From contig OX597819.1 in NCBI GenBank assembly GCA_951406725.2, forward strand, positions 91,946,001 through 92,010,000: a stretch of 64,000 nt of DNA. The letters are read 5' to 3'. The notes under the pieces were generated by a model. The model searched no databases. It saw nothing but the letters and a program-made list of their open reading frames with translations, and was not told the origin of the DNA. This document shows, in pieces, positions 2,976-64,000 of this stretch. A program made the position numbers and the translations under genes. Position 1 is the first letter of the stretch. Each line of letters starts with the position of its first letter. This DNA is from Octopus vulgaris. Lineage: Eukaryota.

Positions 2976-3078
2976 TATATCGGTGTGTGTCCGCATGTGT
3001 GTGTGTGTATTGTGTGTTCATGAAGAAATGATGTTTTTTGGCATTTACTTACATCTGATTTCAAAACTTTACTTGCAG

Positions 3079-3535
3079 GTATCAGTCAACGAGGAGAAGA
3101 TGAGTCTTTCAAGGGAAGAATTTGAATCATTAAGGGTAAGCCAGCCAAAAGTTGACCACCGTGCTGTAAAACCAACCTTATGCAGCAATTTAGTTGCTGA
3201 TCTACATAACAACAAGGGCCGTGGTGCTAAGCTCTTCGCTAAACGCCAAGCTCGATCTGAGAAATGGGTCGTTGATGACAAAAGTGTGAAAAGCCCATCA
3301 ACTCCTGAGGCAAACGTAAATATGATGAATGTACAGAATAAATTGTCAACCATGATTGAGACGCCAATGCCAATAATAAAACAAAAGCCACCGAGACCTG
3401 AGCAGTTGCCAAATGTACCAAAAGCGGTTCCAGTTCCAATCGTGAAAACAGATCTGAAGTCTGGCGGTCATGCTATAAATCTCGATGGACCCAACTTCAA
3501 TAGAAAGGCACGAGGATGGAATGCTCCTGCACCGA
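3079..3535 (+). CDS. Internal coding exon of a synaptopodin/myozenin (calsarcin)-like proline-rich protein
   Basis: Acceptor acttgcag ends at 3078; donor gtaagt at 3536; open frame VSVNEEKM...GRGAKLFAKRQARSEKWVVDD...PNFNRKARGWNAPAP. The motifs resemble the synaptopodin-2/myozenin GxGAxLFxKRQxRxEKxVVD and FNR motifs. Phase 0 start, phase 1 end. Upstream exons are presumably outside the window. Confidence 0.85.
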
Positions 3536-4438
3536 GTAAGTGTCTATTATTTTTTAGCAATTCATTTTTTCATCATTCGTAACAATACATTATAGTTCTT
3601 AATAACAACAGTTGTTGCTTATGTATTCGTTGATGAGTGCAGTCATAAGCCATGTGGTTAAGAAGTCCACTTCGCAGTCACATGGTTGCGGGTTCGATCA
3701 TAGTGCGCGTCACCCTGGACAATTGTCTTTTCATAGTCTCGAGTCAACCAATATCTCGAGTGGAATTTGGCTGAATAAAACAGATGTTCGATATATATAG
3801 GGAACAGTTTTTCTTCCAAACGTTTTGTATTGAAGACATGATTGCTGTCGTATTTAATAATTTTTTTAATGAAAGATATCTGATATTTCCTTTATGTTTA
3901 GTTTGTGACATAAACGTTCCTATGATCCTTGACATTTCAAGGCCTTCTCAGCATAATCTTCTGAATAAACTAATGCTCGGAAAGCGCTGGTGCTGCGTTT
4001 TGCAGTAGACATCAAGGGATCATGGGGATGTTGCTGCAACTGTAAAAAGCACCATCACTTGTAGGAGTTGCACCGGATACTACTTGTCACACCCTGTCGT
4101 AAATGTTATAAAACAGTGGATTACTCATTGGAAATCTTTAACCAGCAACGCTGTTATTAAAAAATGCTATTCAAAATAAATTAAATAGAGTTTATAAGAG
4201 AAATATTGTGTCATGATCTATGGGATTAATTGCCATAAACTTGCCCTTATCAATTTTCTTGAATTTTCTATACCTTCCCTTGCGTCTTCAGAGTTCTAAA
4301 ATATTTCCAGATGGATTATTGTTCTTTTAAAATTTAATTGATAAAACACAAATCAACATTGTGTCGCAAAGTAGAAATAAAGCATAATATAGTGTCATCT
4401 AGTCTATCTTTCAATGCAATAGTTAATAAGTGTAGTGT

Positions 4439-8830: not shown

Positions 8831-9583
8831 CGCTTATATCTTACACGCATAGCAATGTATGCTGGAACATTAAAAAAATCATTCCTTATATGTATTGGCC
8901 AGTGGACCTAAGATTTATTCGATGAACATCATTTTGTATAGATTTTTTTTACGGTTTTAATAAGTATTTCGTTTGCAATTTTATATTCCAATCTTCTTTT
9001 CTTGTTTATAAACTAGGTTTTTATAAGTCTTACTAATTGGGGGATCTAATTTCTTTTTATCGTGCTATTGAAACTCTTCAAAACTTACCTATACAACATT
9101 TCGAATGCCGAATTTCGATATTTAAAATCTGTTTTAAATACATATGTTTTCCTGGCTTGAAAGTTTATCAGGATAACTATCCTCTTGGCCTTGGCCGCTG
9201 TCATATTCTGCATGACCAATATATATCAAATATCAAAGTTTATAACAAAGTTACTACCGTCGTAATGACTCGATTTCCGCTTGCTGTTCGTTGTGCATGT
9301 TCAACGGTACAACGGGACCAGCGAAATGGAAAATATTCTGTGAAATTAAAAAAAAAAAATTAGTTATAGTTAAGTCTTCAACAGAAGAGGAATGAAAGAA
9401 GAGGCTGTCTTCTTTTACAAACACACTTTAATACTAAATTTAAAACAAATTTCGGAAGTGTACTTGCCGAGCAAGTGTCTTGATCTGAAATTATATGTTG
9501 AGACTAAAATAATTGTAGTGTGGAAGAAATATATGAGCCATTCAAAAACACGCAAATTCTTAACTTCACTTAAACATTTATTA

Positions 9584-10256
9584 TTTGAAAATAGAAATAA
9601 TGCATTTCTAAATCTCTCAGAGAGATTTATGCATTAGCAGCACGATAAAGTGATAGTATGCTGTCAACTTAATGTAACAGTCCCATGAAAGGGAAGAATG
9701 CTACTGTTATTTAGCCCTAGGAAACACCGTTTCCTGTTGGACTTGACACATTTCCTGTGTCCTCATGTTTTCAAAGTGGAGATAAGCACCTCCACCCAGA
9801 AAAGCCAGCATTCAGAGACTAGTTTCAGAGTCATTGCTCATCATCAGTCTGGAGTAGCATGGCTTACTAGCTATCGATGCTGTCGATCACAGTAGCATTA
9901 AGTTGACAACATACTATCACTTTATCATGCTGCTACTGCAAAAATCTCTCAGAGATTTACTAATGTATTATTTCTATTTTCAAAAATCAGAAATGTATTT
10001 CACTTGAAATATATGTTTTCAAAGGCGAATAGGCATTGACAGCTAGCAAGCCATGCTACTCCAGACTGATAATGAGCAATGACTCTGAAACTAGTTTCTG
10101 AATGCCAGCTTTGCTGGGTGGAGGTGCTTATCTCCACTTTGAAAACATAAGGACACAGGAAATGTGTCAAGTCCAACAGGAAACGGTGTTTCCTAGGGCT
10201 AAATAACAGTAGCAATTTTCCCTTTCATAGGACTGTCACAGCAAGTTGACAACATA
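9584..10256. mobile_element. Hammerhead-bearing non-coding element, inverted and permuted pair (monomer about 343 nt)
   Basis: A(9584-9674) B(9677-9880) A'(9896-9984) spacer B'(10033-10237). Direct repeat aagttgacaacata at 9900 and 10243. Confidence 0.8.
9813..9851 (-). ncRNA. Minimal type I hammerhead ribozyme motif
   Basis: Minus strand caga-CUGAUGA-ugagcaaugacucu-GAAAC-UA-GUC-ucug. Stem I caga/ucug, palindromic stem III ACUAGU. The + strand copy at 10062-10100 has CUGAUAA. Confidence 0.75.
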
Positions 10257-11558
10257 TCATAAGACTGTCACAGCAAGCTGACAACGTATAATTTATTATT
10301 TGGTATCAAAATTTTCGTCGCACCAACTGTGACCTGGTCATTGATGCTGTTCCATTGCAATACTATATGTTTAAGTGAAGTTTACAGCCGTTGTGTGTTT
10401 TTTAATGATTCGTGTATGTCTTCAACACAGCAATCGTGTATAACAAATTTTTATGTTAAAACAGAAAAGCATATAAAAATATTAGTAATGGGTTTATAAT
10501 TCTGATATTTCGGTAATTAAGGTGATTGGCAATGAGCCGGCTAGTTTTAGCACTTGTTCACCTCCGGTTCACGCGATCTGTGATGTGAATTCTTGACCTG
10601 GTGCGAAGAAAATATATCCTGAAATGAGATTTTGTTCTGTATTCTATCGTTTTTATGAGCTCGTTGTCCGTGCAACCATTATAATAACACATATCATACA
10701 TTTATTCAATGGAATATATTTAATTCAATGAAAAAAAAAGAAAAAACAAATCAGGAACAAAACGAAACAATACAAAAAAGACAAAATAAAACACAGTATA
10801 CACATACAAAGTATATACATAGAAAATAATGACTAGTAATAAACTGTTGGATATATAGGAGAGTGTTTTCGACGTTTCGGATAATAGACATTTGAGTGGC
10901 ATGTACTTAAATATCGTGTAGGGTAAGATCTAGTTAATAAAACCGAATTATTAGCAGTGGATATGTTGGTTTGGTTTTGCGTTTGTCGCCCCCACCCCTG
11001 GGAATGGTCCCAATCCATCGCGTGTTCGGTCGGTGCTAGTTTAGAGTTAGTAATAGAGAAACTACAAAGGACATCTATTCGCATAATCGGCAACTACAGA
11101 ATAACTGGACAAACAAAATAATCAAAGAATTCAATGTATGGAAACATTCGGGGTTAGCAATCCAGTTTTTACACTAGAACAAGTCTGAATATGTTTCAAG
11201 CTTACAAATATATCATAATTACATAAAAATGCTATATATATATATACATATAAACTGAGCTATATGTGAATATATTTTTATGAAGAAGACTTTTATGCGA
11301 AATTGTATTGTACTGTACTGGATGTGGTAGCTGTTTCATCCATTTTGCGCTTAATTTGTATGGAAAACTGCGAACAACAAATATTTGCTTCTGTGTCGAT
11401 GTAACTTAACCGTAAAATTTCTTGTTGGCATCTACTTGATTCTAAACAATGGTTAATTAAATTCAGCTTTGAACGAAATTTCGTTTGAAATTCATTTCAA
11501 AATTACAGCAATAATAATGATAATGATGTTAATGATGATGATGATCTTGATAATGACA

Positions 11559-16871: not shown

Positions 16872-17295
16872 ATGTATGTAAACAAACAGAGTTTGCTTCT
16901 TTTAGAGGCATTGAGATGTATTGAAATATACAGATATGGAAATATTTTATTCTCAAACGCATAGTAATAATGGTGACTAGCATAAATATGATTGCAGAAA
17001 AATTAGTAAGCGGTCAGCCATGAGAGTCGAACTCACATCTCTGGGATTACAAAATTTGTTTGTATACATACATCGTAATTTTACATACAGCATCTATAAA
17101 AGTTAAATTTATAAGTTCAAAAATTGCGGAAAGATTTGTAAGTGGGTGGTTTAGCTTAAAAACAAAGAACTATGACTGGTAATCACAGAGATACGAGTTC
17201 GAGTCTCATGGCTGTACGCTAACAAATTTTTCTGCAATACAAGGATGTTCTATGCTATTCAGCATTATTATTACGCGTTTGAGAATAAAATATTT

Positions 17296-17301
<6 letters not shown>
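16872..17301. mobile_element. tRNA-headed short element with inverted, permuted copy
   Basis: 16934-17050 inverts 17179-17301, and 16872-16890 inverts 17055-17073. tRNA-like head 17143-17215 with gagttcgagtc B-box. Confidence 0.6.
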
Positions 17302-17343
<42 letters not shown>

Positions 17344-20855: not shown

Positions 20856-21053
20856 TATTATTTACATTATTTACATTTGATGGATATTTGTCCTCATCTT
20901 GTTTGTTGCTAACACAACGTTTCGGCTGATATACTCTCCAGACTTCATCAAATGCCCACGAGCATATGGCGTAGTAGTTAAGAGCGCGGGCTACTAACTC
21001 CAAGATTCTGAGTTCGATTCCAGGCAGTGACCTGAATAATAATAATAATAATG

Positions 21054-21090
<37 letters not shown>

Positions 21091-21269
21091 CAACATCGAA
21101 AAATACCTTAGGAATGAGAACCCAGGTTCAAAATTTCCCCAAGACGCCCGATGAAGGCTGGCGGGTACATCAGCCGAAACGTTGTGTTAACATCAAGCAA
21201 GATGAGGACAAATATCCGTCAAATGTAAATAATGCACATAATTCCTCTTCTCTTAAATATAGAACTGTA
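20856..21269 (+). mobile_element. tRNA-headed element with (AAT)n spacer and 3' hammerhead, preceded by an inverted copy of its 3' part
   Basis: A-box tggcgtagtag (20967), B-box gagttcgattcc (21010). Hammerheads at 21143-21188 (+, CCGAUGA) and 20911-20956 (-, UUGAUGA). Same family at 43918-44350. Confidence 0.75.
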
Positions 21270-21960
21270 TCATTTATAATAATTTAATTAGAGTAAGGTT
21301 AATTTGAAGTCTTACAACTATTTCTGGGATATCCCAAGTGATAGGCTAGCATGTCTGTACGCTGAGTATTCCGTCATCAGAGACAAAGTGAGTATGTATG
21401 GAAATTCTAAACAGGGGAATTCACAGTTTATAAGGAATAAAATAGAAGAATAAAGAGTAAAAGTAGATATAAGAAAACAGACTGGATAATAAAAGTTCAC
21501 AATTCATCTTTTCTCAGAGGGTATGGAGGTAAATCCGTACTTCCGTGAAGGTACAGGTCCTTATGCTTCATCCTAAGTAAATCCAGGCACACTAGCTAAC
21601 CACTAACATGAACACATCATTCGAAATACTACCTACATTCTGTTTGGATTTACCTACGATTAAGCGTAAGGACCTATTACCTTCACGGAAGTACGGATTT
21701 ACCTCCATACCCTCTGGGAAAAGATGAACTGCGAACTTTTATTATCCTATATGTATTCTTATATCTACTTTTACTCTTTATTCTTCTATTCCATTCCTTA
21801 TAAACTATGAATTTTCCTGTCGAGAACTTTCATAATATTCATTTTGTCTCTGATGACGGAATTCCCAGTGTAGGGACATGCTAGCCTATCACTTGAGATA
21901 TCCCAGAAATAGCTGTATGACTTCAAATTAACCTTAATCTAATTAAATTATTATAAATGA
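21270..21960. mobile_element. Fold-back element, arms about 316 bp, a hammerhead in each arm
   Basis: 21270-21585 inverts 21645-21960. gucu-CUGAUGA...GAAAU-AGYU-GUA-agac at 21309-21384 (-) and 21846-21921 (+, stem I mismatch). Confidence 0.8.
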
Positions 21961-28124: not shown

Positions 28125-28672
28125 TGTCATTATTCAGTTTTATTTTAAAATTTCTTGCCAATAGAGAAAGAACCGGTTGTAACTTAGATTCAACGTTCCT
28201 TCATTGGAATTTCAACACCAACAACAAGGTATATGTATATGGATGTATACGTGCAAATTTGTAGGTTTTTGTTTTATGTATGTATTCTTATGCGTGTACT
28301 TGTATATCGAAACATGCTCATATATACTTAAATTATAAACTTCTGGTAAGTTTTACAGATGTTTACAGTTCCAATGACGGCTTGGATCTGTAGTATTCGA
28401 ATCAACTTTCTCTTTTCTGGTTTTGAGACGCCTAATTTCTCAGGATTGATATTTAGGCAATGTATTACACATACCAGTGCACCAATAATTACAGGTGTAA
28501 AACTGAACTTGTAATCTGGATAGAGTAACTGCAGATTTCTCAATAGTTCAGCGTAGATATTACCTTTCTCGCTAATCTTCAGCTTTATGTTAACATCTGG
28601 TGGGTAGTTAATTTCCCCATTGTACACAGTTTCTCTTCTCTATCCCAAATCATTATATCAGGTCTACTGAGT
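28125..28672 (-). mobile_element. 3' fragment of a restriction-like endonuclease (RLE) LINE
   Basis: SRPDIMIWDREEKLCT...PDVNIKLKISEK..IYAELLRNL...PVIIGAL, a PD-(D/E)xK domain. Bounded by (TATG)n. Confidence 0.8.
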
Positions 28673-29411: not shown

Positions 29412-30193
29412 CTTGTATGCGTTCATATATATATATATATATATGCGTATATTTTGTATATATGTATACATTTCTATACGAAACTCGGGTGGCTAATTTC
29501 CAATATGTACTTCTATTTTCATTAATGAGGTAATTGTTGTTTACTTACTAAATGTCCAGGCCCTTCCCCTCCCCATTCCTGATAGCCCAAAATAAATAGA
29601 TTAAGTAGAGCACTAAACTGGTTTCCGAAGTGTGCTAATTAACAGCAAATATAAGGAACAAAATAGACAAAGACATAATTAAATTAGTAATTGTTGGCAA
29701 CATGTCGCAATGAAAAATAACGTTACAAAAAGTAAATAATGTAATGATTAGTAATTAACTAATAAGCAATTAGAATTTATCTGCGTATCCAATCAGATGT
29801 TAGAACAGGTGGAGCTCCGGATAACGTTATTTGTATTATTTCGTTATCTTTCTTAAGTTCTGAGTTCAAATTTCATCCACGTCAGTCAATTTTTGTTTTT
29901 TTGCTTTCGTTGTTATGAGGTTGACAAAATAAAATATTGTAGTTGATATAAACTACAATACTCACGATCCCAAACTGTGTAGCTTTGTATCAAATTTGAG
30001 AAATTCTATTCCGTTCCTTGTCAATTTCTTTTTCTTTTAATCTCTCCAAGAGTTCGAGTACTGGTCGTTGAAAAAGTCGACAACTATCCGTCCTTCTTCG
30101 CGAATTCGTGACCTTGTGCCAATGTTGGAAACCAATTATTATCTATATTTTCTGATTTCAATTCTTATTTGTCTTTTTTCTTTTATTTTCCAG

Positions 30194-30429
30194 CGCCAGT
30201 TGTACCGCAGATTCCACCGCAAGCAGGGAAGAAAGCACCGCCACCACCGGTAGCTCCGAAACCCAGCAGAGGCAAAGGGCAACACACCCGTTCGTCTTCT
30301 GACCAATTAGGTTACTGTTCGGACGTAGATCACAGAAGTCAGACGCACAGTTTCCGGCAAAAGCCGATGTTTGCCCCGACTCCATTTGCTTCAAGTGCAC
30401 CACGTGACTTACCTGGTAGTGATATGTGA
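30194..30429 (+). CDS. Terminal coding exon of the same gene (T-PVVPQIPPQAGKKAPPPPVAPKPSRGKGQ...RDLPGSDM*)
   Basis: Polypyrimidine tract plus ttccag acceptor ending at 30193. Phase 1 matches the 3535 donor (a+cg = Thr). GC-richer, proline-rich frame with PPPVAPKP; TGA at 30427-30429. Confidence 0.75.
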
Positions 30430-41702: not shown

Positions 41703-41989
41703 TTCTACAATAGACACAAGGCAGGAAATTTTGGTGGAGGGTCGACTCGATTACACCGATACCAACGTGCAAGTGGTACTTATTTTCTTGATCTCGAAAG
41801 GATGAATGTCGACCTGCGGGGATCTGAAAAACAGAACGGAAAGACAAACAAAATAGCGCTAAGCAATTTTCCTGTTTTGCTAACGCTTCTGCCAGCTCGG
41901 TGATTTAATAATAATTATAATCGTTACTACAACTGGTACGAAGCCTGAAATTTTGTGGAAGGGAGCTAGTCGATTACAGCCTGCTCTTC

Positions 41990-42300
41990 CCGGTAGAAAT
42001 TTAGCCGGCTGATAATCATGACGATTAACATTCTGATAGCCAGATCCGTCCTATGCGCGACAAAAGTTGATCGACAATTCCACAGTTCAACAGTACCGGG
42101 ACACTGAAAAAATGCGTACAGAAGGGCTTCACTGCTTTGCACACATCTAAAGCAAGTTCGTTTGATAGCACTTCTGTGTCTGTAGATTTTATCAGTACTG
42201 CCAGGCCAGGGTTTTCTAATGCTATCCAAGTTTCTGGGTTGCAAATCTCCGTAACGTGCCAGCCAGTTTATTCTTACTGACATCCAGAGTTTCTTTACGA
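41990..42300 (-). mobile_element. L1/Tx1-like LINE 3' remnant (zinc-finger region)
   Basis: DKIYRH...TCFRCVQSSEALLYAFFQCPGTVELW matches the CxxC...E...HxFxxC motif. Confidence 0.6.
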
Positions 42301-43099
42301 ACGTTGTTTCCCTTCCTCAAAAACAAGTTCTAAATAGAAATCTTAAGTGAAAATTAGAGTAAAACGGTCAGCATTGTTCACTGTCTTGGAATATATGTAA
42401 ATGTTGCTGCCTTGTGCATCAACAACTACGACATACTTAGTATGCCGCTCTAAGGAAGAGCAGACGTCCTGATCTAGTTTAGTTTCTAATATAGGCATAA
42501 TTACATAATTTTGAAGGAAGGAAAAATAGATGAGACTGATTTCTGTACTTCTCTGCCTGACTAAAGTTTAGTGGAAGTGAAACTCAACTGCGCTTAAATT
42601 TTAACTTAGAAAGTAATGGTAGTTCTATCGTTTCTATCATCCACAATGCTAACAATAAGCAGAATGTAAGGAACCGGAAGAAATATCATTAGCACTTTGC
42701 ATTTTCACCGACACTCTAATGATGCTGCGAATCTACTGCCCTTGCTATCAATCTACTGTCGTTACACGTCTCTGATAATGATAACCGTTGGGTCACTAAC
42801 GTTTCAGGTTATAAAACATTGAAGCTGATTTCAACATCGAATTGAAATGAAAGTTGATTTTATGATGATTCAGTTAAATATTTCAAGTCGTTCGTGTCAT
42901 CATAGGTCTGGTTTACAAGTTCATGTTTAAGGTTTTATTGATTATTTACAGCATCTAATAGAAATAGAGTTTCCGAGATAAGCTTGAACTCCAGTAACAG
43001 CATTTATTTATGACATTCGTTCACACTTCTACAAAAATGCCGAAGGAATTGTTATATAACGTAAACATAAAATTAATGGAAACAATTTTCACAGTATTA

Positions 43100-57382: not shown

Positions 57383-57444
<62 letters not shown>

Positions 57445-57450
<6 letters not shown>

Positions 57451-58094
57451 AATATAAGAGAGTGGTCACTATATGGCTCACTCTAGCACTAGTTAATCCA
57501 AAAGGTTTCAACCACAAAAATACATGTTTCCCATGAAAGTCAGTACGATTGTTAGCTCACACGGACAGGGCAAATAAAAAATAACAAAAATACAGATTAT
57601 TTTGGGACAATTGTTTCGCTATTAATGAATTAAATGTAATTTTACTTACAAAAAAATCCACTTGTAGCTCCTCAGCCAAAACTATCTGGATGAAATCCAC
57701 TCAATCACACGCCAGATTTTACCATAACGATAAATACACGTGTGGTTCAATTGATTACATCCGACGTTATAATTCAAATGCCCCTACTAACAGCGCGCCA
57801 AACTTTCACGGAAAACAAATACTGCATTTAGAAATAAATGTAGCATAATTATAATTAATTAATAAGGGTGAGAGAATTAGATACTAATTTAATAGTATAT
57901 CTATTCAACACCAAGTGGCCTAGTGCACTAGGCCATATAGTGACCACTCTCTTATATTTATTTTGTAAAAATATTATAATATATTATAAAATATTATAAT
58001 AATCCAGGTTTCTCGGAGCACTAGGCCACTTGGTGTTGAATAGATATACTATTAAATTAGTATCTAATTCTCTCACCCTTATTAATTAATTATA
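57445..58094. mobile_element. Hammerhead-bearing non-coding element, inverted and permuted pair (monomer about 535 nt)
   Basis: 57445-57477 inverts 57932-57964, and 57850-57926 inverts 58018-58094. Flanked by (TA)n. Confidence 0.8.
57600..57681 (-). ncRNA. Type I hammerhead ribozyme, intact core
   Basis: Minus strand uuuugg-CUGAGGA-gcua...uagc-GAAAC-AAUU-GUC-ccaaaa. Confidence 0.8.
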
Positions 58095-60843: not shown

Positions 60844-60959
60844 TGCTTACTGCACCTAGGTTTCCCAAGCGGTCACCCATCTACGTACTGACTAGGCTCG
60901 ACGTTGCTTAACTTCGATGATCAGACGAAAACCAGTGCTTTCAACGTGATATGGCCGTA
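60844..60959 (-). pseudogene. 5S rRNA-derived sequence (pseudogene or SINE3-type head)
   Basis: Minus strand tacggccatatcacgttgaaagcactggttttcgtctgatcatcgaagttaagcaacgtcgagcctagtcagtacgtagatgggtgaccgcttgggaaacctaggtg matches metazoan 5S rRNA with substitutions; first few nt missing. Confidence 0.88.
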
Positions 60960-62536
60960 TATATATATATATATATACATATATATATTTACACACACAC
61001 ACAGACGGGAAAATCGCACTTTTGATCAAAGGTTTGTCCCATTAGAGCTTACCCGGGCTACGACAACAAAAAACGACAACAGAGGACGTATGGTTTGTTA
61101 AAAGAAGCCAATTATACATTCTTGTTGCTACTTGCACGGCTGAATTATACTTGTCTGTGGCATTTATTTTTCTACCGAAGATACTAAATAAGGCTTAAAC
61201 CTGTCTAACTTTGACTCAAATATTAGCCGAGAAAGAAAACAAAACGCAACCAAAAAAAAAAAAGCAAAACAACAGCAACAAAAAGAAAAAGTTATTAATC
61301 GATTAATATATTTCTTTCCATCTAATTTTTGATTCAAGTCTAGTCTTTTTCATCGTACCAAGACATACAAAACATAATATATACTTTCAGCCAGTTAACT
61401 ATTATTTATCATTGGCATGACATATTGGAATTATCTATTGACAAGTCGACTTATTGAGAATTAAATGCTTCTGGCAAGCAGAGTCGACACGGCTACCGGT
61501 GTTGAGATAAAAACAGTCAACACTTCTGCCGAATTCCGATCGATTCGGAAAGCTGTCATTTTAATTCATTTCAAAATAACTTTTCTCTTATGAGAAATTG
61601 GAAGAAGGGAGAGGGCAGGAGAATGGTGTTGCTGCTCTCTAATCAATTCAGATGGATTTCATTTGATTTAAATTGATTACCTAGGTAAATTTGCAAGATG
61701 CCATTTTCAGTTCGCTTAAATTGCTAATTTGACCAAAGCGTGCGATTAAAAAAACATTGCCATATAATGTAAATAAAACATAATGGTTAAATAATGGCTA
61801 AATATTTTACATTTGATTAACTATGAGAAATGGACAAGCTGAAGGGAAAACGAGAAATATAACATTAATTTTCTAATTAATGACAGAATCTATTTGAGAA
61901 CACATATACAAAGGAAAAAATTAAAAAAATAAAAAAATATAAAAGGTGTAAGTTCCACATTTATATTCACATTAATCTTAATTATATATACTTAATATTG
62001 ATTGCATATATTTATTAATCATAATAAAGAATCATTAACTAATTACTCAAATATAACACACTCGTGGCATTCTTCATTTGACGAAATCAGGATATTAGCG
62101 CTTGGGAGAATTAATAAAATAATATAAAAATAATCATGGCTAAGAATAAAAACGAAGGGAATCAACTTTTCAAGTTTTATATCCATGCATGTATAGAAAT
62201 ATTAAGCATCTAGGCAAAATAAAATTTGCACACACTTACACGCACACACACACACACACACATATAAATACACGCATACATAGAAACTATACCCATGTAT
62301 GAGTATACATATACATATACATATATTGTTATATAAGTATATACATATATTTACACAGACTCACACACATGCATACAAATAGGCGCTGCCGTGGTTGTGT
62401 GATAAGAAGGTTGCTTACCAACCACATGCTTCCGCGTTAAGTCCCACTGCATGACATTTTGGGCAAGTATTTTCTACTCGGGCCAACCAAAGACTTGTGA
62501 GTGGACTTGGTAGATGGAAACTGAAAGAAGTCTCTC

Positions 62537-63049: not shown

Positions 63050-64000
63050 ATAAAAATATCATCTTCCAATTTGTATCGTACAATACACATTTCGACGCTT
63101 CTTATAAAAATCAAATGTCTATCTGTTTACATTTATACATGCATGGTTGATATATATATATATATATATATATATATCATTATAACATATAAGAGGTAAC
63201 AACCATAGGAAACCTAGCACGCTAGAAGTAATAGCCAAAATCCAAACCACCATTAGGGATAACTATCAAAGGGAATGAAAAATAAAAACATCTACCATCT
63301 ATCTCCTGGACCATGGTTTCTAGCTCTATATTAGCAAATAAAATAATTTGCCAGTCGAAGCTTTCATCAACAAAAAACTGCGCTTGCGCAGTGGATTTGA
63401 AAAATTATAATGCATAAGCACGGGGCACATGCTGGATAGCCTCGTATCTATATGTTTAATCTTGGCGAGAAGTTACCTTCTCAAGTCATACCGACTCATA
63501 AGGTTTCATTCCCCACCTGGATGGGTCGCTGGTCCGTCGCAGGGTTACTCATTTTTGCCAGCTGAGTGGACAGGAATAAACGTGAAATGAAGTCTTTTGC
63601 TCAAGAACACAACGCGTCGCCCGGCCCAGGAGCCGAAACCAAAATCTTATAGATAATAGCAGTAACGGAAGCAAGCAGAACAGGAGGGATATAGAAAACA
63701 AGAGAGAAATGTAGAGGAAGAGAGTGAGAAGGTCGCAAATAACCAACAAGTTAATATCTTTTATGTTTTACCTTTTACTTGTTTCGGTCATTTGACTACG
63801 GCCATGCTGGGTCACTGCTTTGAAGGGTTTTAGTCGAACAAATCGACCCCAGGACTTATTTTTGTTGTTATTGTAGTTATTGCAAAACATGCTGACGTCA
63901 ATACCAGAACAACTGTCAGGTATCTTCACAAATTTGGCTACTATGGCAGAACAGCAAGAAGGAAACTACTTCTTCAACCCGCAAATATGAAGCGGTGAAA

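Follow-up and report, generated by a model that had tools for sequence, protein, structure and literature searches.

The insertion at positions 9588-10290 of the window (the whole 64-kb stretch of Octopus vulgaris DNA that was analysed) is very probably a hammerhead element derived from Penelope-like elements (PLEs), and it is likely to be a decayed, non-autonomous passenger of PLEs, of the non-LTR retrozyme kind. It has the structural features of a non-autonomous PLE derivative and, having no ORF, is not an autonomous PLE. The joint claim that the insertion contains an ORF-less, 343-nucleotide PLE-derived unit and that it was inserted by two-strand priming is held with moderate confidence, and the insertion is predicted to be inert today.

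Boundaries and layout of the insertion

The insertion is 703 bp long and is flanked by a 12-bp sequence that is repeated exactly, at 9576-9587 and at 10291-10302 (plus strand), as a target-site duplication (TSD). The left repeat is AT-rich and starts with ATT, and an identical search recovered a 12-mer in 0 of 3000 random position pairs. The final 4 nucleotides of the left repeat, 9584-9587, also form the end of the element (microhomology), and this overlap explains why the earlier note had started the element at 9584. Its right end at 10290 stands, while its left end moves to 9588; the 12-bp TSD had been missed. Because BLAST ran on to 9574 and 9996, a longer primer-template homology of the left flank with the spacer was considered and rejected as being at chance level (33 of 365 local 16-mers and 82 of 400 shuffles); the 4-nucleotide overlap alone stands. 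The insertion landed in an older inverted repeat (9512-9585 and 10359-10434) with 76% identity and a loop of about 55 nucleotides when the insertion is subtracted.

Microsatellites and repeats are abundant in the 64-kb window. The exon found at 3079-3537 matches the PDZ/calsarcin protein LOC115212926 of Octopus sinensis with 99% identity, and TBLASTN placed consecutive parts of this protein at 3043-3546 and 30190-30426 on the plus strand, so that the insertion sits in a plus-strand intron, 6 kb from the nearest mapped exon. The two placements are the last two mapped exons of this Octopus PDZ/calsarcin-domain gene. Elsewhere in the window, a 5S rRNA match (60844-60962, minus strand, 86.7 bits) stands isolated beside (TA)n and is possibly a pseudogene or the head of a 5S-derived SINE. 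ORF fragments at 45649-46008, 28328-28639, 47074-47370, and 41966-42316 resemble the C-termini of non-LTR retrotransposons; they carry, by eye, what we take to be a restriction-like endonuclease motif, and there is a weak zf-RVT match at 41969-42316 (E 0.006).

The right arm reads in the direct orientation on the plus strand. A partial copy comes first, from about 9889, and the arm continues through part A (9900-9984), a 48-nucleotide spacer that is present in this arm only (9985-10032), part B (10033-10242), and part A again to 10256, with a 32-nucleotide duplication coming last. An exact 14-mer at 9900 (to 9913) and at 10243 (to 10256) gives a period of 343 nucleotides. The unit of A, spacer, and B therefore occupies 9900-10242, in a region of 39% GC, and the direct orientation holds about 1.1 units. 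The 3′ end of the direct arm (10225-10290) includes the second 14-mer and the tandem duplication 10225-10256 / 10257-10288, in which 29 of 32 positions are identical.

The left arm (9588-9880, minus strand) is an inverted, 5′-truncated copy of 293 nucleotides which, when read from 9880 to 9584, aligns seamlessly to B and then to A. Alignment to the permuted unit, 10022-10242 followed by 9900-10002, was likewise seamless, with 288 identical positions, 28 mismatches, and 13 gap columns, 11 of which were at the ragged ends. The two inverted pairings are 9657-9880 with 10033-10256 (208 of 224 identical) and 9584-9674 with 9896-9984 (82 identical, 7 mismatches, and one 2-nucleotide gap). These inverted-arm and permuted alignments bear out the layout that the earlier note had read as A-B followed by A′, spacer, B′, and the start of A′. 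Its 343-nucleotide monomer is upheld as the period between the 14-mers. That period holds at a single locus, since no other copy of the element was found in the 64-kb window by BLASTN or nhmmer --max (best other E-value 1.3); 343 nucleotides may be the product of a one-off deletion and not the length of a family-wide monomer.

The RNA-sense 3′ ends of both arms point outward, and the left arm is longer by about 70 nucleotides. This one-sided, tail-like 3′ extension (9588-9656, minus strand) ends in a terminal stem-loop, and the right end is without it. At the centre of the inversion, the filler at 9881-9888 is, as judged from the sequence, an imperfect 9-nucleotide tandem duplication (9879-9887 of 9870-9878). 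It is followed by the short partial upstream copy (9889-9913, plus strand), a pLTR-like remnant that repeats 10206-10256 minus 26 nucleotides deleted at a CATT microhomology and closes with the first 14-mer, which makes the arrangement a partial tandem (pLTR-like) one. This partial copy has the CATT state of the left arm, unlike the right end, and the laps of the direct arm thus differ (CATT versus CAAT/CAGC). Overall, the arms are 93% identical (about 7% divergence; Jukes-Cantor distance about 0.076), with 16 differences among the 224 positions of B (13 of them transitions) and 7 differing positions plus one gap in A. At 7 arm sites the left arm has G where the right arm has A, and the reverse was seen at none; A-to-I editing of the template was considered for these sites and rejected, as one of them is the G8A core loss described below and another is CpG decay.

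Hammerhead motifs and predicted RNA folding

Two hammerhead motifs are carried by the insertion, an intact one in the inverted arm and a decayed one inside the 343-nucleotide unit. The earlier note had counted one hammerhead, having overlooked the decayed plus-strand copy. The intact motif (9813-9851, minus strand; match 9847-9817) is of the minimal type I and consists of a 4-bp stem I, the core CUGAUGA, a U10.1-U11.1 pair, a 3-bp stem II, GAAA, and a palindromic ACUAGU stem III, with C17 at 9817; from the sequence, cleavage is predicted at 9817/9816. The opening of stem II by a U-U pair, which had been noticed earlier, was confirmed in the match at 9847-9817, and natural U10.1-U11.1 hammerheads are known, U-U being the best-tolerated mispair at the base of stem II (PMC3088659). 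The decayed motif (10062-10100, plus strand; match 10066-10096) reads CUGAUAA (G8A) and has a GUU site (U17). It is predicted to be dead by analogy with the PLE hammerhead of PMC11167929, in which breaking the C3-G8 pair (G8C or C3G) abolished cleavage. The host-sense (plus-strand) copy is thus the broken one (n = 1).

With a permissive descriptor, 6 core sites were obtained across the window, of which 4 have the strict CUGANGA core; a basal 1x1 mismatch in stem II was permitted, an option chosen in the knowledge that the target has U-U. In 100 block-wise dinucleotide shuffles, the mean was 0.52 for all cores and 0.10 for strict cores, with maxima of 2 and 1. All four strict sites lie inside ends-out inverted elements (one in the present insertion, two in an element at 53.5 kb, and one at 57.6 kb). 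Rfam gave no hammerhead at 9588-10290, either at the gathering threshold or up to an E-value of 10, and at the gathering threshold it was also blind to the more canonical motifs at 53.5 kb and 57.6 kb. The Rfam miRNA and snoRNA matches were rejected because they were far below gathering and due to the inverted repeat or the UGAUGA motif.

In terms of folding, the nearest-neighbour model, which leaves out tertiary contacts of the core, predicted the inactive fold to be favoured over the active one both for the monomer (-6.8 versus +3.7 kcal/mol) and for the dimer (-19.6 versus -9.4 kcal/mol); in the favoured fold the core is paired with the cleavage site. A cleavage assay on the 39-mer 9813-9851 would therefore be weak, and uninformative if negative, because this fragment is predicted to take the inactive fold. 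For comparison, the PLE hammerhead of Anolis depended on protein for its cleavage (PMC11167929), and 8 of 9 Xenopus dimers remained uncleaved (bioRxiv 10.64898/2026.07.22.740005). Both larger RNAs fold below their shuffles, the left arm with a z-score of -4.64 (0 of 200 shuffles as stable) and the 343-nucleotide unit with a z-score of -5.0 (0 of 100). When the spacer was shuffled by parts, sequences as stable as the native one were obtained in 0 of 200 cases for 10011-10032, 26 of 200 for 9985-9996, and 34 of 200 for 9997-10010. Shuffling of 10011-10032 ruins the stability because this segment closes a long imperfect stem that encloses the hammerhead (10012-10037 are predicted to pair with 10121-10149). 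The sensitivity of this segment, and the insensitivity of 9985-10010, indicate that B and the 3′ half of the spacer go together, whereas the link from A to the spacer rests on one copy. A deletion junction could lie in the 5′ half, where the pairing is not significant.

The longest stop-free stretch of the 343-nucleotide unit is 59 codons and the longest Met-initiated one is 34 codons, so that no RT and GIY-YIG ORF lies between the repeats of the insertion. A Pfam scan of 9 of the 115 ORFs in the window gave no PLE RT or GIY-YIG domain, and the window yielded no autonomous-PLE pLTR with homology to the insertion. A sigma-70 promoter scan was at chance level (3 hits versus 2.8 expected) and was set aside as irrelevant in a eukaryote.

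Comparison with known elements and with neighbouring hammerhead elements

The layout of the insertion resembles that of EN+ PLE insertions. In the insertions described in PMC3846280, with Pen2a_Av of Adineta vaga as an example, two direct pLTRs have a shorter inverted pLTR next to them, with a one-sided tail and TSDs of 8-10 bp, and a layout of tandem and inverted copies, tail, and TSD is described as typical of EN+ PLEs in PMC8557442, which notes non-autonomous forms, and likewise in PMC8969392. The octopus insertion shares with these the direct partial tandem, the adjacent head-to-head inverted 5′-truncated copy, a one-sided extension that is tail-like, the TSD, the AT-rich target, and the hammerhead within the repeat. 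It differs in having a 48-nucleotide spacer instead of an RT/GIY-YIG body, a tail of about 70 nucleotides compared to the 30-40 published, and a TSD of 12 bp compared to 8-10 bp. In O. vulgaris, PLEs comprise 190 families and occupy 6.83% of the genome according to PMC13282606.

The intact motif is also similar to the minimal type I hammerheads of low activity that pLTRs carry (PMC4209133, where a circular-template model is put forward) in its 4-bp stem I, palindromic stem III, conserved core, and occurrence in opposite-strand pairs. In contrast to the usual PLE hammerhead, in which G10.1-C11.1 follows one bulged base and helix II is long, its stem II has 3 bp beyond the U-U pair. Metazoan retrozymes have units of 150-450 bp, and of 350-390 in a mussel (PMC7229834), and are described as derived from pLTRs (bioRxiv 10.64898/2026.07.22.740005). 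Like these non-LTR retrozymes, the insertion has an ORF-less 343-nucleotide unit, a type I hammerhead motif, low GC, strong predicted structure, and a TSD of more than 4 bp. An element is called active when at least two units with complete hammerheads follow each other head to tail; the insertion has about 1.1 direct units and a broken core, and it would count as a monomer derivative. It also has an inverted partner, and the word "inverted" has no occurrence in the available text of PMC7229834.

The insertion resembles LINE-1 twin-priming inversions as well, in its inverted 5′ part, its microhomology, and its TSD. In LINE-1 the microhomology is found at the second primer, and the twin-primed parts do not overlap. 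The arms of the octopus insertion, in contrast, overlap by about 290 nucleotides, which would call for two RNAs or for a template that is multimeric or circular.

Further hammerhead elements are present in the window. A younger permuted-inverted element at 53546-54445, with about 97% arm identity, lies inside a (TATC)n microsatellite; its two hammerheads are intact, and their loop II is long and AT-rich. Its unit is 476 nucleotides long, with a direct arm of 488 and an inverted, permuted arm of 415 nucleotides (404 identical, 11 mismatched, 3 gaps). A third unrelated hammerhead unit of about 536 nucleotides (57441-58094) is flanked by (TA)n; its hammerhead has a CUGAGGA core (57675-57606, minus strand) and a palindromic stem III, its inverted arm spans the unit junction, and a perfect 20-nucleotide palindrome (57916-57935) lies at its centre. 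A fourth family, minimal-hammerhead-like and with partly decayed cores, consists of an inverted pair at 20857-21242 and a further copy at 44209-44354 (near 44229); the motif has a bulged A, a GGCUG/CAGCC stem II, and a very short stem III. A relaxed scan gave a possible degenerate hammerhead at 63270-63390 (minus strand) with a UUGAUGA core, a palindromic ACCAUGGU stem III, and a GUC site. Two long palindromes (21270-21960, 85%; 16926-17309, 71%) are hammerhead-free by the descriptors and are possibly of the MITE or PLE type.

No homology was detected between the present insertion and the elements at 53.5, 57.5, and 21 kb (best BLASTN E-values 0.30, 0.36, and 0.48). The statement that the 53.5-kb element is unrelated in sequence and yet of the same topology was therefore correct on both counts, the former by its best E-value of 0.30 and the latter by its arm alignment. 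The three unrelated units (at 9.6, 53.5, and 57.5 kb) all have a palindromic stem III, and their direct arms and units measure 368/343, 488/476, and 486/about 536 nucleotides, respectively. The distance from the predicted cut to the direct 3′ end is 160, 137, and 165 nucleotides, and the one-sided extension is 71, 96, and 127 nucleotides. An ORF is absent in all three (longest stop-free stretches of 59, 61, and 47 codons), with 48-58 nucleotides where the body would be. The shared mechanism proposed by the earlier note is upheld by this likeness in ends-out layout and cut-to-3′-end distances, and it is very likely the known PLE insertion pathway.

Insertion mechanism, rival explanations, and implications

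On the most likely account, a Penelope protein acted in trans to mobilise an RNA that derives from a pLTR and has no ORF; we infer all of the enzymatic steps. A tandem source locus elsewhere would give a multimeric RNA, the palindromic hammerheads would cut as dimers (hammerhead dimer cleavage is reviewed in PMC6765202), and the RNA may circularise. The purified PLE protein of Anolis, which is predicted to be a dimer, cuts each of the two target strands and extends it, with a preference for ATT where the DNA is AT-rich. Synthesis begins at two positions within the RNA, and these set the tail; hammerhead cleavage is dispensable in vitro (PMC11167929). A PLE protein would have nicked AT-rich DNA here, with the nicks 12 nucleotides apart, and each 3′-OH would have primed cDNA synthesis at one or the other of two start points within the RNA, separated by about 70 nucleotides, leaving a one-ended tail. 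Both cDNAs would have traversed the cleavage site and the unit junction and then stopped early, and their 5′-truncated ends would have been joined with slips (the 9-nucleotide duplication and the 26-nucleotide microhomology deletion). If the cDNAs come from opposite strands of a 12-nucleotide staggered cut, then outward 3′ ends, unlike 3′ ends, and a messy centre are expected, as observed. Because both arms are scar-free across the cleavage site and the unit junction, the template would be an uncleaved multimer or a religated circle. A single circle is disfavoured as the template for the direct arm, since its laps differ (CATT versus CAAT/CAGC) and the partial copy resembles the left arm; this favours non-identical tandem units or a fold-back, and the self-priming of PMC3846280 stays viable.

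Such self-priming, in which fold-back template switching of one cDNA produces the inverted arm of an ORF-less PLE-derived element and the second target strand is not used, is an unlikely origin, although the partial copy 9889-9913, with its CATT like the left arm and not the right end, also fits it. Palindrome self-priming at inverted junctions is proposed in PMC3846280, the junction of the 57.5-kb element is the perfect palindrome noted above, and the centre of the present insertion has a 9-nucleotide duplication. However, that centre has no long palindrome, the left arm meets the TSD with 4-nucleotide microhomology and has an extension that is missing from the right end, and one PLE is known to extend both strands in vitro (PMC11167929). 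The main rival on identity is that an autonomous Penelope element left the insertion behind as an isolated remnant, made of truncated pLTR pieces or by internal deletion, so that 343 nucleotides would be specific to this locus and there would be no monomer family. In its favour, 5′ truncation is usual in PLE insertions, pairs of hammerheads that lie on opposite strands at a distance of 100-700 bp have been explained as truncated PLEs (PMC4209133), and microhomology-deleted copies with inverted pLTRs are described (PMC3846280); the pairing of 9985-10010 is not significant, and the window has no other copy of the element. This origin is nevertheless judged unlikely too, and marginally more so than self-priming, as the body is replaced by 48-58 ORF-free nucleotides in three unrelated elements within 64 kb and there is no long ORF start downstream of the hammerhead (34 codons at most).

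Two further explanations are far less probable than these. It is very improbable that the insertion is a foldback or MITE-like DNA element, or a local inverted duplication, with a hammerhead-like motif by chance. The long inverted arms, the TSD, and the negative Rfam result would agree with it, as would the many inverted repeats in the window and the target site being itself an old inverted repeat. However, the left end pairs with the internal segment 9896-9984 and not with the right end, there are no terminal inverted repeats, the permuted junction requires a tandem or circular template, and the strict hammerhead sites are 40-fold over the shuffle mean and all within such elements. Slimmer still is the chance that the insertion, whatever its origin, has been retained by the host as a long intronic hairpin through which the PDZ/calsarcin gene is edited (A-to-I) or its splicing is controlled. 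Cephalopods show heavy RNA editing, 222 of the 293 left-arm bases are predicted to pair arm to arm on the host-sense strand, and the hammerhead in host sense is the broken copy. The arm divergence of about 7%, dominated by transitions (13 of 16 in B), looks neutral, however, and the insertion is 6 kb from the nearest mapped exon.

Returning to the PLE-derived unit inserted by two-strand priming, a more general reading can be put forward, which we regard as doubtful at present. Several hammerhead RNA families that lack ORFs and are unrelated to each other would exist in Octopus, and as a rule they would insert as an ends-out pair of permuted copies of about one lap each. Such pairs would record how a dimeric Penelope RT, working from both target strands, copied RNA circles of unit length from two fixed start sites; in the family of the present insertion, the U10.1-U11.1 hammerhead with its 3-bp stem II would be conserved and active.

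As a single locus, the insertion is a decayed retroelement copy that exemplifies the PLE-type hammerhead unit in an octopus. No earlier description of octopus hammerhead elements of the PLE type was found in the titles and abstract openings of the literature searched, and the available text and supplement of PMC13282606, on O. vulgaris repeats, have no mention of hammerhead, ribozyme, or retrozyme. The insertion connects two published pictures, that of retrozymes as tandem monomers and that of PLE insertions as tandem and inverted structures. If the one-lap geometry is true genome-wide, the short ORF-less units would be a handy substrate for testing the origin of PLE inversions and tails, which is given as an open task in the available text of PMC8557442. 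If the reading by circle copying is true, the origin of the inverted repeats and tails of PLEs, along with the circular template that has been proposed, could be read from the sequences of hundreds of such loci.
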